Shown piece after piece: positions 1 through 9,000 of a stretch of DNA of 64,000 nucleotides (within the stretch, counting starts at the first letter, position 1; the number at the start of each line of letters is the position of its first letter). A program made the position numbers. Source of the stretch: Alphaproteobacteria bacterium (GTDB lineage: Bacteria; Pseudomonadota; Alphaproteobacteria; RF32; CAG-239); contig JAZKXV010000021.1 in assembly GCA_045611785.1 (NCBI GenBank), forward strand, positions 14,903-78,902. The letters run 5' to 3'.

Positions 1-3000
1 AATTTGAACCTCACGTTCCGGAATGTTAACATCTTTACCCTCACGAGCAAGTTTATAAGCCCTCTGCCCGTTTATTTTTATTGCAGAATAAATAGGCGGA
101 GTTTGTTTAATGGTTCCGATAAACGATGGCAAAACCTCTAAAATTTCATCTTTTGAAGGGATTATATCTGATGTATTAACAACCTCGCCTTCTGTATCAT
201 CTGTGTTGGTTTGAACGCCAAATTTTAAGATAAATTCATATTCTTTCGGGCCGTCTGTAACAAACGGAATTAGTTTTGTTGCTTCGCCAAAAGCAATTGG
301 TAAAACGCCGGTTGCAAAGGGGTCCAATGTGCCTGCATGACCATTTTTATTGGCATCTAACAAACGCCTGGTTTGGTTTACAACATCTGTTGAACCCATA
401 TCACGAGGCTTATCAATTATGAGCCACCCATTTATATTTTTATGTTTTGTTCTTTTCATAGTTTTTCCTTTTTTTTGCATAATAATGCCTTTTTCAAAAC
501 TTGGCAAGAAATGATTAGGAGAATTTGCCTTATTGTTAAGCTCTATACTTTGGTCAAGTTGGAGTATGACAATCTGCCTCTAATTGTCATGCCTCGACAG
601 GCAATGGAGGTTGTCAAGGCATCTAGTAAAAGACCCCTTGACGGTGTTTACACCACCGAGGGGTGACATATAAGCAATTGTCACCCTCTGGCTTAACCAG
701 AGGGGACAGGTCAAAAGTGGCAGTAACAAAACCAAAAAAAAAGAGGGGAAACCCCTCTTTTTTTACCATGGTTGCCTATATTGCAAGCTAGGATCATCTA
801 AACGCTCAAGATAAGCAGCATTGTTGCCTTCTCGTTTTTCCATAACACCAGACCCATTTTTTTCAAAACCCTCTATAGTATTATTTCCCTCGTCATCTGA
901 TTTAGCACTCTTTGCCTTACCTCTTCTAAAGCTATTGAGCTGGTCATATTGGTCAACATATTTACCATCAATTCCTGAAGAGAACAAGTTTGTACGGTCA
1001 AAGTAGCAATATACTGTTGCATAACCTTCTAATGTACCTGTTTCCACAGGGAACACGTTCCAATAGTAGTTATCCAGGTTCTCCTCATTATCAAGAGCTT
1101 TTCCCATCAACTTATTAATGATTTTTGCATAATGGTTTCTTGGATACACAAAGCCCATCACAGCTGTCCAACCGGCAAAATCATCACATCCGTTTTTAGC
1201 ATCTGTTGTATATTGGTTACAATCACCTTCTTGACCAAAGTTTTGCGGTATCACCTTACTTCTGAGCCATGTACTTTGTTGAAAATATAACGGCTCCGGA
1301 GACCAGTCTAAATCTGTGCCATGTTCTGTAGGAGATAATGCTCCATAATGTTCTGGTCTATCCTGATAACCAAGATAATATATCATAGATCCTGTGGCAG
1401 ATGATATATTTGCACTCTTTATTGTAGGATATTTTACAGTAGATGTACCAGTTGTACCCACTTCAAGTTTTGCGTTAGCCAAAGAGTTTTCTTGGTTTTG
1501 ACCTGTTCCCATAATTACAAAGCGATCACTGTTACCATCACTATCACCACCACCAAAAGGATTTTTTGCCTTCTGATTAACCATTCTTCCGGCTTGAGCC
1601 ATTTTGAAACCTGCAGGAGTTATGGTGATAACTCTGGCATGTCCCGGAGGACATTGTGGTGCCGGCACAACACCTAAAAATGCTGATGACCACTTGTTTG
1701 TTCCAACTAATGAATCACCCATCATATCCGTTGCGCCTTCTACATCAAGCTGACCGTCCTTTAAAGTCTCTTTTACCTTGATTTTATTAATATTTAAGGT
1801 GTCTTCATAAGTGTTGGTAACCACATAAATACCTTTATTGATAAAGTCCGGCAACATATCACTAAGGCGAGCACCGCCACGTGTGGTTAACTTAATGTCG
1901 TGCATAACTGATGTGTACGCAGGGTTAACCATATATCTGTCATATTCTGTACTGACGTCGTCTGTAGAAGGATTTCCAACGGTTCCCTCAGATCCATAAT
2001 AGTCACTTACATTATAATCTCCGGCAAAAACAGGGGTAGCAAGGCTATGATCTTTGTCAAGCGCATTAGAAACAAAACGACCTGCTTCAACATAACCGAC
2101 ACCACCATCTGCACCTACTCCGCTGGATACTGGGTTTTGTTCAATTTCAATTGCACCACGACGGATATATACACTGGCTTTTCTTTGCCTATCTCTTGTA
2201 TGTGAATTTTGATCTTCTGATACATTAACAGCAAATATCTGTGTACTACCATCATCTGCTGAAACATAAACCTGTTGCGGATTAACGGTTAAAACAGAGC
2301 CTTTAGTGGTTTCTGCACTGCTTGGACTTAGATTCTCTTCATTTCCTTCATTACTACTATCTGTACCATCTTCCGGTAACACTTGGAACAACGGGTTGTT
2401 TGAAACTGTAAGTTCTGCAGTGCTGATTTTTCCGGTTCCGTCACCTCTAGTATCAATATAAAAAGCATCAGTATTACCACCTTCACCGGTTGCAATAGCA
2501 CCAATTTTAAATTCATTACTTGTAACTAATGTGGTAGCTGAATTAATTGCTACAATATCGCCAGTACCATCTAACTCTAATGGAACTTTATCTCCACCAA
2601 ATTGGAATCGTACTTTACCTGTTTCGCTTGTTCGAAGTTCAAGTTCTTCCTTACCTTGTACAATAGCATTTGTGGCGCCTAATTCTATGTAAGAAGTAGC
2701 TTCACCTGGGGCTGAACCATCTTGGTTATACATACCGGTTTTTTCAGCATTAAGAACCAAGCGCTCTTTACCGCTATTTGTAATATCTGTTACTTTTACG
2801 CCATCTGCTGTTGCATGCAACCAACGGTTTGATTTATCTGCATTTATAGGCTCATTACCACCGGCATGCAGTTCTTTTAAGTCAATATCTCCGGTTCTGA
2901 TAGTTCCGGCTTCTAATGTGCCGCTAACATATGCATTGCCTTGAACATTAAGTTTAAGGTTTTCCGGTTTCTTTTCTTCCTCTGTTAACAAACTCGGAAG

Positions 3001-6000: not shown

Positions 6001-9000
6001 CGGGCACGAGTATGACAAAGGAAGAGGGAAACTCCGTTCAGGGTTGATGTATAACAATATAAAAAAAAGAAGAAGTTTTCACCTCTTCCTTTTTTGTAAG
6101 TATTGTAAGTACAACCCTTGGAACGATTATTAGTAGTATTTCCAAGCAACTGAGTTAATAGTACCGTTACCGTTACAAGCATCAACTGCTGCAGTAACAG
6201 GCATTGGTGTAGCATTTGCCCCTGTAAAATTCGTAGAACCACCACCAGGAACTGCAACAGCAGGTGTACCAGCAGCGAAAGGAGCCATTGCTGGTTCTTC
6301 TTCTGGGTCTTCAGCTTCATTACTAGCGCTTGCTACAAATTTATCTGTATAAGCACCTGCTATAAGGCTTGCAGCGCCAGCACTATTTTGTGCAGAGATA
6401 CCTAATAAACCTGAAGATTGACCAGAACCCCAGTCACCTGTTGCGATTGTTACACAAGCTTCTTGTGATAAGCCTGCATATTCAATGATGAAGGCTTCAG
6501 GTTCGGTTGGTGCTGTAGAACGAGCTGCAGCTGATGTAATTGTCACATCGCCACCGAAAGCATTAACAAGACTACCATTTTTAATCATATCATTTGGCAC
6601 AACACCAAAGTTAATTGCTGTTGTATTATTTAAGCCAGAGTAGTTACCTTGTGTAGAATAGATTGTTCTGATGTTTGCCACCAACATTGAAACTTGGTCT
6701 GTTGTTTTGTTGATTTTGAATTTGTTCATAGCTTTAGAATAACCGGCGATACCACCAACAGATAACACACCGATAATTGCTAAAACGCCGAGCATTTCAA
6801 CCATTGAACGACCTGATTCATTTGTATATTTCATAATTATCTTCCTTTTTTTAAATAAGTTACTTACATAAAAAAATCGCTCTTATAAAAAAAGCGACTG
6901 GAAGCTAAGAACTATAATAACGAAATAGCGCGGTATATTGACCGCAAGGCTTATTTTACCGCCTTCCAGTCATTTATTTAAATAACTAGTCGGCGTATAA
7001 ATTTTAACGTCCCTATACTAAAGACGCGTTATTTCGGAATTCTTAGGCTCCGGACAGCCAACTCGACTGTCTGGTTTAAATTCTTAGTACAAAAAAATTA
7101 AAATGTCAATAGTGTTATGTGTTTTGATTTTTTTTACAGTTAAGCAATTGTCACCCTCTGGCTTTGACCCGATAATCCAGGTCAAAAACATTGCCTTATA
7201 AATTCCCTGGATACTTGTGTCTATTCCTCACTTCGTTCGGGCATGAGTATGATAAAGGAAAGGACACAAAAAAAGAGGTGGTAAAACCACCTCTTAATCT
7301 ATCCAAATGTTATAAGAATTGCTTCGCCACAACCATAAGGGTCTTGTGTTTGCATTTGGCAACTATAAGCGCCTGTTTTTTGCTTACACTCGTCTGCACT
7401 ACGATAGTTATCAGCTTCGCAACTTGTTGGCTCATAACATCCACTAACTATAGTACATACTGAATTGAAGTTTGTGCTTTCACAATTCGATTCTGATGTA
7501 TATGTACATGTTGTAGCTGATGTACAACCAGTTGTCGCATCACACCAATATGGTGATGGTGGATATTTTACGTTATTACCATAATATTCGCCTGTTGAGA
7601 CCCAAGTTTTGTTAAAGCCAGAGCTTTTAACTTGCCATGTAACGCCTTTATCAGCCTCAACTTGCAGACTAGCTAAATTAACACCTGCGTCTGTTTCGCT
7701 AAGAGTTCTTGAACCTGTTGAGGTTGTAATAATCTTAGCTTTAGGGGAGTGAATATAAACGTGTGAAGGATTGAAAAAGTATTCATTACTAGCTATTGGA
7801 GCTGTAATATTTAATTCACCAGCTAAATTCATATAGTTTGGTGTAATTCTTGGTGCTGTTGAATTTGTTTCAATAGCCAATTTACTATTAGGTCCAATAG
7901 CTATAGAATTATATGAAATACCTACATTAGATCCAGTATGTTTAACATTGATTTCACCGCCATTTTGCACAGCCATAGTTACGCCATTTGATATATTGGC
8001 ATTGGAAGCCTTAATATTCACAGTACCTTCAACATTAATGCCACTATCTGTCTGACCATACATAGCAACACTGTTTGAACCACCAACTATGTCAATATCT
8101 AATGTTGCTCCACTATATAATGTTAAATCACCCATTTCTGACATATATAATGCACGGTTTGTTGTTCCGCCACGCACTTTGATAGAGTTTTTACCGTTCA
8201 TGACAAATCCGTCATTTTCATCTAACTTCAGAGCATAGTTTTCAGAAGCTGTTGATGTAACATCAATGTTAACATTAGTAAACTCTACATTAAAACCCAA
8301 ATTTATTTCAAATGCAGAGCCATTATTGGCAGTCCATACCATATTTATGTCCTTAACTGCAGCATTATCTGATCTTGTCAAAAATTTTCTGCTTTTCATT
8401 GTTAAAGTATGACCAGCACCATCAATAGTTTTAGCACCAATATTTAAGGCATCAGTAGCTGTATCAGAAGTACCATCGATATTAGCTGCTAAGGTAACTG
8501 TTGTACAAGCTGAATTGCTAAGAGCTGTTGTAAATTCTGAATAATTTGAAACTAAACAGCCATCATCAGCAACGCATTGGCCATTTACAAGCTCATAGCC
8601 ATCGTTGCACATAATTACTTCATAACAACCGTTGTCAGCTAATCCGCATGTAGCTTGCTTATTATTATATTGGCATGTATAAGATGAAACGTAGTTATCT
8701 ACACCATTACATGCACAATCTATTGCTTCGCCAGCAGCATTATACACTACCTTTGCCGAAGAGCAAGATGCTCCGTATGCAAAGCTTGTAATACCTGAAT
8801 CGCATGACACTAAATTATATTGCTCACATGTTTCTATCTTTCGACAAGCTCCATCTGCATATACTTGTCCGGAAGCACATGTCGGTGTGTTAGAAACACA
8901 AGCACCATTGGTTAATGTGTAACCGGATTGACATGTTGTTGTACTTGCCTTGTAGTAGCTTCCAAGGTCTGACATATAGATAGATGTACAATCAAAACCT

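Follow-up and report, generated by a model that had tools for sequence, protein, structure and literature searches.

A giant chromosomally encoded minor pilin of the PilV/TcpB class and its leaderless partner in gut Alphaproteobacteria

Can a protein of 1147 amino acids be a genuine type IV pilin, and what would such a protein do? The question is raised by a stretch of 64,000 nucleotides (in the following called the window) from the genome assembly GCA_045611785.1 of an Alphaproteobacteria bacterium (RF32; CAG-239), corresponding to positions 14,903 to 78,902 of contig JAZKXV010000021.1. A sequence-only reading of the window had described a pilin module of three minus-strand open reading frames (ORFs). 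All three were found where it had placed them (763-4206, 4217-4948 and 6130-6834), and the two N-termini that it had quoted were correct. The first ORF, whose stop codon resides at 763-765, encodes the 1147-aa protein. It had been said to exceed the largest described minor pilins two- to threefold in size, which agrees with our comparison: it is 2.2 to 2.7 times as long as PilV (434 and 508 aa) and CofB (496-residue chain). On the basis of the homology, fold resemblance, domain plan, operon structure and genomic context reported here, we consider it very likely that the protein is the minor pilin that forms the tip of a type IVb pilus of the PilN/R64 type encoded on the chromosome. As part of this reading, we are confident that the protein can be classed with PilV, TcpB and CofB, from which it differs by a much larger exposed part. 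The locus thus encodes a giant, non-shufflon, chromosomal minor pilin of the PilV/TcpB class together with a leaderless partner, and is not a categorically new system.

The N-terminus of the protein reads MTDFRKKILNKINQGG↓SMMVEAMAMLALIALVTPTLY (the arrow marks the predicted cleavage site), with the junction NQGG↓SMMVEAMAMLALIALV. Residues 1-16, MTDFRKKILNKINQGG, form a class III (prepilin) leader (4159-4206, minus strand) that is basic and ends with an invariant Gly(-1). The mature N-terminus of the family has the pattern S/T/G-(M/L)-(M/L)-(I/V)-E, and the hydrophobic helix after it is invariant. Neither G(-1) nor E(+5) varied among 59 close and 37 more divergent sequences, even at 27-33% identity. 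When all six frames of the window were scanned for G-x4-E preceding a run of 15 mostly hydrophobic residues, four matches were obtained, of which only those of the 234-aa protein (encoded by the third ORF) and the 1147-aa protein were situated at the start of an ORF. The prepilin N-terminus, which had been called bona fide, was confirmed by the class III signal and by the invariance of G(-1) and E(+5).

The leader is followed by a PilV-like pilin domain (residues 17-255; 3442-4158, minus strand) consisting of a hydrophobic alpha1-N segment, a long alpha1 helix and a beta-sheet. The Pfam family PF04917 Shufflon_N, the constant region of PilV, matched this N-terminus with an E value of 1e-5 and 25.3-25.7 bits, a match that appeared only when the N-terminal 280-300 residues were scanned alone. 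Among 37 diverse relatives, 17 matched Shufflon_N (best E value 2.2e-14). A comparison of the N-terminal alignment with the annotated PilV protein (508 aa) of a Bosea sp. RAC05 plasmid by hhalign gave a probability of 97.8% (E 9e-13) over 223 columns, reaching from the prepilin segment to a common NTMxxDLxMG motif. The match to Escherichia coli IncI PilVA was weak (probability 9.7%, E 0.003). In its structural model, the N-terminal domain was closest to the type IVb pilus proteins PilM, CofA, TcpA, TcpB and CofB and showed the alpha/beta-roll fold of pilins, i.e., a long N-terminal helix on an antiparallel beta-sheet. A disulfide-bonded D-region, common but not universal in type IV pilins, is absent, as there is no Cys before residue 852. 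Judged from its sequence, the N-terminal part of approximately 250 residues is homologous to the constant region of PilV. A conventional Sec signal, which had been named as a finding that would speak against a pilin, is excluded for the 1147-aa protein because the class III signal, the Shufflon_N match and the PilV profile match coincide.

Relatives of the protein are numerous. A search of 5.8 billion proteins returned 361 homologues, the best 120 of which were almost all full-length (1074-1209 aa). None of the 361 had a precomputed Pfam domain, and the few named ones were labelled as hypothetical proteins from uncultured Alphaproteobacteria. In a scan of GTDB with one genome for each species, relatives were present in the genomes of at least 232 species, nearly all of them metagenome-assembled genomes from the guts of humans, ruminants, rabbits, chickens and other animals. 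The 80 related loci referred to in the following were sampled from these 232 genomes; their ORFs code for 888-1478 aa, contig-truncated copies left out. Pfam and NCBIfam scans of the full-length 1147-aa protein gave no match at E <= 0.01, a profile search against the PDB sequences gave none either, and our search of the literature on this clade or on a giant PilV found nothing relevant.

Conservation divides the protein into three zones. While the N-terminal part of approximately 255 residues is very conserved and the C-terminal part of approximately 470 residues is conserved, the middle region (residues 256-676; 2179-3441, minus strand) is variable, beta-rich and rich in insertions and deletions, with the lowest conservation and the most insertion columns of the alignment. 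It spans approximately 420 residues and was modelled by AlphaFold2 with low confidence (predicted local distance difference test, pLDDT, mostly <50). Out of 58 differences to the protein of a 95%-identical strain, 22 fell within residues 501-600 and only three within residues 1-300.

The conserved C-terminal region (residues 677-1147; 766-2178, minus strand) contains the invariant block DRYMVNPAYTSVMHDIKLTTRGGARLSDxLPDFINKGIY (residues 756-794), whose motif NPAYTSVMHDI was present in 75 of the 80 loci. It also harbors the only four Cys of the protein (852, 996, 1007 and 1067), all of which are conserved. Their confinement to this domain is a signature of extracytoplasmic location, which we count in favor of a tip pilin. 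The core of the region, residues 789-899 and 979-1079 with a variable loop between them (970-1842, minus strand), resembles the beta-sandwich of TcpB and CofB and of H-type lectins. TcpB of the toxin-coregulated pilus (TCP) of Vibrio cholerae and CofB of the CFA/III pilus of enterotoxigenic E. coli are type IVb minor pilins that start assembly and are located at the tip. Their C-terminal domains, together with H-type lectins, were the best PDB structural matches of the core, with scores of 5.7 for discoidin I, 5.2 for CofB and 4.8 for the H-type lectins Helix pomatia agglutinin and SLL-2. With the full-length model, both TcpB and CofB were among the top six matches. The protein ends, after a variable low-complexity linker, with the conserved tail Y-x-x-R-L-(N/D)-D-P-x-L-x-Y-x-(D/E)-x-W-COOH (766-813, minus strand), which terminates nearly every member of the family including those at 27-33% identity and which had low pLDDT values in monomer models.

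Phage tailspikes and receptor-binding proteins ranked after these matches of the core. They suggest another function for what would still be a pilin: the large protein might be a pilus-borne enzyme or receptor-binding fibre, whose middle region forms a tailspike-like beta-helix that binds or degrades polysaccharides of the target cell. We regard this as unlikely. The tailspike matches scored lower than TcpB and CofB and are weak because the middle region was poorly modelled. No internal repeats were detected in this region, and neither Pfam nor NCBIfam nor the PDB sequences revealed a match to any enzyme.

Directly upstream of the large gene lies the gene of its partner (4217-4936, minus strand), which encodes 239 aa from a conserved ATG at 4936; an alternative GTG start at 4948 would give 243 aa. 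A partner gene directly preceded the large gene in 76 of the 80 loci, the other four being without upstream sequence. The gap between the two genes was -14 to +47 nt (mode 10) in 73 of 74 loci, with one outlier of 145 nt, and the partner is translationally coupled to the large gene. In the window, the ribosome binding site AGGAGA of the large gene (4213-4218, minus strand), assigned by reading the sequence, overlaps the partner stop codon TAG (4217-4219) and is located 6 nt before the ATG of the large gene.

The partner family comprised 227 representative clusters, nearly all of which aligned from residue 1. Its members start with M-Y-(I/L/V)-W-(V/I/M), possess neither a leader nor Gly(-1) and have a hydrophobic residue at position 5 instead of Glu5. 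They share a hydrophobic N-terminus of 17-20 residues and have conserved Cys. A Sec signal peptide was ruled out for the partner, as there is no basic n-region and as the would-be -1 position is occupied by Pro or Glu in several members. The assumption that all three genes carry or resemble pilin N-termini was therefore upheld for the 234-aa and 1147-aa proteins, but not for the protein then counted as 243 aa. On the other hand, the FLPxGY motif ascribed to both this protein and the 1147-aa protein was recovered, as YLPxG[YF] in the small and YLPYG[YF] in the large proteins. A deep hhalign comparison of the partner with the PilV-like domain gave a probability of 88% (E 3e-6) over 52 columns, aligning partner residues ~37-99 with residues 52-108 of the large protein, which comprise the C-terminal half of alpha1 and the YLPxG(Y/F) loop; a shallower first comparison had covered 17 columns at a probability of 2%. 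In view of the deep profile match, the shared motif probably reflects local homology between the partner and the PilV-like domain. The partner thus appears by sequence to be pilin-related without being a prepilin. It gave no match to Pfam, to the PDB sequences or to R64-type PilM, nor to PilV and the neighbours of the Bosea pilV gene as single sequences. An exact-sequence look-up of a protein 100% identical to the partner (P0121) returned no record.

On the Bosea sp. RAC05 plasmid pBSY19_1 (locus L082), an unannotated 199-aa protein is encoded directly upstream of the annotated pilV gene (15690-16289). Its N-terminus, MLYLLVMMFVLFLAAFYG..., is leaderless, hydrophobic and similar to that of the partner. 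In a local hidden Markov model search of 33 proteins, this protein and the large pilin came out on top with a non-significant E value of 0.1. A family search with the Bosea protein retrieved only three sequences, and the comparison of the partner with their profile (probability 43%, E 2.5e-4, N-terminal 42 columns) was suggestive only. A leaderless component of this sort may be common in PilV systems.

The co-encoded partner brings to mind secretion by a pilus. TCP and CFA/III secrete the co-operonic proteins TcpF and CofJ via binding to the minor pilin (PMC6048534, PMC9565799), and the constant presence of the partner gene would fit a model in which the large protein is a pseudopilin-like periplasmic piston of a secretion-type filament, exporting the partner or other cargo without forming an extended pilus. 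We judge this very unlikely. The partner lacks not only the basic n-region but also a consistent signal-peptidase site, its hydrophobic N-terminus looks uncleavable, and it showed no sequence similarity to TcpF or CofJ. Moreover, a tip protein of 120 kDa whose end is lectin-like, together with a major pilin of the PilS type, is more in keeping with a surface pilus.

The candidate for this major pilin is the 234-aa protein encoded at 6130-6834 (minus strand), 1.9 kb from the large gene. It matched the Pfam families PilS (E 4e-17) and Bundlin (E 3e-12), both of which comprise type IVb pilins, so that the sequence-only reading was right in taking it for a plausible major subunit. It has the leader MKYTNESG and the mature N-terminus RSMVE (NESG↓RSMVEMLGVLAIIGVL); relatives retain G↓RSM(V/I)EMLGVLAI including the Arg at +1. 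In both pilins the +1 residue (R or S) had been regarded as unusual and Glu+5 as conserved. The latter holds. The former does not, as +1 already varies among PilS and PilV proteins: of three N-termini compared, PilS and PilV of the R64 type (IncI plasmid) have W and the Bosea PilV has L, which makes R or S less unusual than had been held.

Pilus machinery was found in the same genome region. Based on Pfam, NCBIfam and gene order, an R64/PilN-type type IVb pilus operon is located at 44481-53449 (plus strand). It encodes a complete outer- and inner-membrane apparatus, namely a TcpQ-domain PilL, the secretin PilN, PilO, a 558-aa protein in the position of PilP, the GspE-like ATPase PilQ and the GspF-like platform protein PilR. 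The secretin scored 288.7 bits with the NCBIfam equivalog TIGR02520 ("PilN family type IVB", cutoff 287.65), and the gene order L-N-O-P-Q-R-S is the same as on the IncI plasmid pN557 and the Bosea plasmid. PilM, PilT (transglycosylase) and PilU were not found in the system of the window. A PilT-family ATPase identified by Pfam T2SSE (61058-62014, minus strand) is a candidate retraction motor. Its best NCBIfam match, pilT_fam, was far below the cutoff, and with the second ATPase of the Bosea PilV cluster it shares 34% identity (E 2e-57). Genes of a VirB-type type IV secretion system (15740-41968, minus strand) are situated between the pilus operon and the pilin module and code for VirB2 (two copies), VirB4, VirB8 (two copies), VirB9, VirB10 and VirB11. 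The region is chromosomal. The window contains mlaA/mlaC, tyrS, anmK and trx; in a near-identical strain, truB-rpsO-pnp reside directly downstream of the large gene. VirD4, a relaxase or an integrase was not seen in the window. Some components of the secretion system are giant as well, namely a 1418-aa VirB10/TrbI protein with Bflower repeats, a 1702-aa Bflower/RHS-repeat protein and a 1410-aa protein without Pfam match.

Several points weigh against a tip pilin of this machine. The Shufflon_N score of the window protein is 1.8-2.2 bits below the gathering threshold (27.5 bits), and neither the block of residues 756-794 nor the C-terminal tail was confidently modelled. The large gene is located ~40 kb from the pilus operon (machinery 40-57 kb away), and in the window as well as in the 80 related loci the gene pair lies amid unrelated housekeeping genes and not among pilus genes. 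Owing to this distance and these neighbours, we infer the link of the large protein to the pilus machine, as we do the tip location, oligomeric state and ligand of every member. The gene in the pilS position of the operon (52892-53449, plus strand) encodes a 185-aa Bundlin/PilS-like protein with the N-terminus MEKLLTMLKNTQILACVAIGLLL..., which contains no Gly(-1)/Glu5 prepilin motif and thereby makes the composition of the filament uncertain. Similar proteins of 205 aa are encoded at loci L077, L079 and L080. Finally, neither Pfam Peptidase_A24 nor a scan for the motif GxGD(V/I)K revealed a prepilin peptidase in the window. In favor of the pilus, on the other hand, three closely related genomes encode an A24 peptidase of 237 aa (Pfam E 6e-16) that matched the pilU region of the IncI plasmid locally. 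It was found 2-3 kb downstream of the homologous gene at these three loci only (L028, 15721-16434; L059, 14467-15180; L075, 8444-9157), where it adjoins groES/groEL. In the strain closest to the window (L083), the stretch before groES (17285-18929) contains other small genes and no A24 peptidase.

The separation of the gene pair from pilus genes in nearly all genomes examined and the lack of a peptidase in the window are also what would be expected if the pilin-like N-terminus were a mere membrane anchor retained from a PilV ancestor, the protein residing on the surface or in the periplasm without any filament. However, not only G(-1) and E(+5) but the whole alpha1 helix is invariant at 27-33% identity, as would be expected if selection still acted on processing and filament packing, and the same genome region encodes a type IVb machine along with a matching major pilin. 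We therefore consider a mere anchor extremely improbable and adhere to a minor pilin of the pilus.

Compared with known systems, the giant pilin is closest to PilV, the adhesin of the thin pili of IncI plasmids such as R64 and TP114. Both share a homologous N-terminal part of ~240 residues with the prepilin segment and the motif N-T-M-x-x-D-L-x-M-G, and both occur with a type IVb system of the PilL/N/O/P/Q/R/S type whose neighbour is a type IV secretion system. In the case of PAPI-1 and the IncI plasmids, transfer by the adjacent secretion system is aided by a type IVb pilus, the PilV adhesin of which recognizes the surface of recipients (PMC9045228, PMC5297154). Besides its size (434 aa for PilV of the IncI plasmid pN557, 508 aa in Bosea and 414-458 aa in TP114; PMC9045228), the giant pilin differs in its C-terminal part of ~900 residues, which is unrelated in sequence, and in the pairing of its gene with a leaderless pilin-like gene. 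Plasmid pilV ends the pilL-pilV operon of a conjugative element, whereas the giant gene is chromosomal and lies apart from pilLNOPQR. A shufflon was ruled out: there are no shufflon segments, no sfx-like or other inverted repeats bracketing 3' coding segments and neither Rci nor another recombinase in the window. Shufflon-like repeats or a recombinase near the 3' end, a possibility raised by the sequence-only reading, were thus not found; the repeats nearby belong to an intergenic direct-repeat family (see below).

With TcpB and CofB, the giant pilin shares a three-part plan (type IVb pilin domain, beta-rich linker, C-terminal beta-sandwich/H-type-lectin-like domain), E+5 and a co-encoded partner gene, yet no detectable sequence similarity. 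It is 2.2-2.9 times as long as the solved chains (390 and 496 residues), its middle region is much longer and variable, and its partner has a hydrophobic N-terminus, unlike the Sec-secreted TcpF and CofJ. A role as initiator and trimerization can be proposed for the giant pilin by analogy only. Modular type IV pilins such as PilB and PilC of Streptococcus sanguinis likewise carry a bulky module on a pilin module for display by the filament. The largest one in an InterPro-based survey had 860 residues (PMC8179133), whereas the giant family comprises 888-1478 residues, and no signature of an additional domain can be recognized in it. Surveys relying on IPR012902 would probably overlook this family, because the scans of the full protein with Pfam and NCBIfam found nothing, including no N-methylation-motif model. 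The type IVa tip adhesins PilY1/PilC are of similar size (~1000-1200 aa) and also have a conserved C-terminal peptide after a variable region; in these adhesins, a minor pilin devoid of Glu5 has its beta-sheet completed by the last ~10 residues (bioRxiv 10.64898/2026.02.14.705861). They are, however, non-pilins with a C-terminal beta-propeller, whereas the giant protein carries a pilin domain and a class III signal of its own, and the scans of its full length revealed no beta-propeller family.

From these comparisons, the following mechanism can be envisaged, in which we infer the processing of the pilin and its coupling to the secretion system. An A24 prepilin peptidase would cut the 16-residue leader after Gly16, and the hydrophobic alpha1-N helix with Glu5 would anchor the protein in the inner membrane. 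The PilV-like domain may then, by analogy with TcpB and CofB, nucleate assembly on the PilQ/PilR platform, probably as a homo-oligomer; as the first subunit in, the giant pilin would therefore come to lie at the distal tip of the filament, which would consist of the 234-aa PilS-type major pilin and be extruded via the PilN secretin. The ~900 residues projecting from the tip comprise the variable beta-rich stalk and the conserved lectin-like beta-sandwich, and would act as an adhesin or receptor-recognition module, in which changes between strains concentrate in the stalk without shufflon switching. The PilT-like ATPase could retract the pilus and bring the bound target to the cell surface, where the adjoining VirB-type secretion system could act, mirroring the thin pili of IncI plasmids and PAPI-1 in mating. 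The 239-aa partner most likely works with the large pilin, the two likeliest readings being a membrane-anchored assembly or chaperone factor and a capping subunit without Glu5.

A more far-reaching idea, which we put forward as speculative and rather doubtful, is that the gene pair encodes an unrecognized two-component tip complex. Here, the partner would be a "born-mature" pilin that does not need a prepilin peptidase, as it starts at its hydrophobic helix and, like GspK and PilK among the capping pilins, lacks Glu5. The invariant, linker-tethered C-terminal peptide of the giant pilin (...RLNDPxLKYxDPW-COOH) would lock the partner in place in the manner of the beta-strand complementation between PilY1 and PilK, and the complex would couple retraction to the type IV secretion system. 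The complex might then be the target-recognition device of a chromosomal, non-conjugative VirB-type system across this uncultured clade of gut Alphaproteobacteria.

The organization of the pilin module disclosed some further features. A strong intrinsic terminator (736-764, minus strand), composed of a 13-bp stem and a T-run, overlaps the end of the stop codon of the large gene, and a terminator-like hairpin (6062-6095, minus strand) is situated downstream of the pilin gene. Upstream of the pilin start codon there is a leader of ~310 nt (6840-7150, minus strand) with two terminator-like hairpins (6946-6929 and 6899-6875), which could be a regulatory 5' region. Scans of the window with Rfam (at gathering thresholds, pilin leader included) and for tRNAs gave no match. 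Interspersed direct repeats of ~80-150 nt with the core GTCATACTCGTGCCCGAACGAAGTGAGGAATAGACACGGGTAT occur at 5108-5302, 5791-5886, 5914-6042 and 7150-7264, with a weaker copy just downstream of the large gene (547-734). Clear copies in the window are only intergenic and flank the pilin gene and a GIY-YIG ORF on both sides. These repeats look like miniature inverted-repeat transposable elements or repetitive extragenic palindromic elements. As a PilS-type pilin was found near the gene pair in only about nine of the 80 loci, they might mark a mobile or recombining pilin cassette. The GIY-YIG ORF (5362-5652, plus strand) codes for a lone nuclease domain of 96 aa (Pfam E 2e-16), lies between the partner and pilin genes on the opposite strand and is kept at the same place in the 95%-identical strain (L083). 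Directly upstream of the pilin gene, an extremely Cys-rich secreted protein of 1840 aa with a weak match to "pectate lyase-like adhesive domain" is encoded (7299-12821, minus strand). Its size varies between strains, since the counterpart in the near-identical strain has 1543 aa.

To our knowledge, which here includes the InterPro-based survey mentioned above, the giant pilins (888-1478 residues) are the largest known family with a genuine type IV pilin module. The family is real and well conserved, but it is unannotated, and current signatures miss it. By uniting a PilV-like N-terminal domain, as in conjugative thin pili, with a C-terminal domain like that of TcpB and CofB, as in enteric colonization pili, the protein joins two branches of type IVb pili that are usually treated apart and suggests that the tip pilins of type IVb systems go back to one ancestral plan. 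The leaderless pilin-like partner raises the question of whether type IV filaments can take up subunits that bypass the prepilin peptidase, and the adjoining VirB-type secretion system with its giant repeat-bearing components the question of whether pili and type IV secretion systems are coupled outside plasmids. For the organisms themselves, the giant pilin is a strong candidate for the means by which uncultured gut Alphaproteobacteria attach to their targets, be it the host, a protist or another bacterium.

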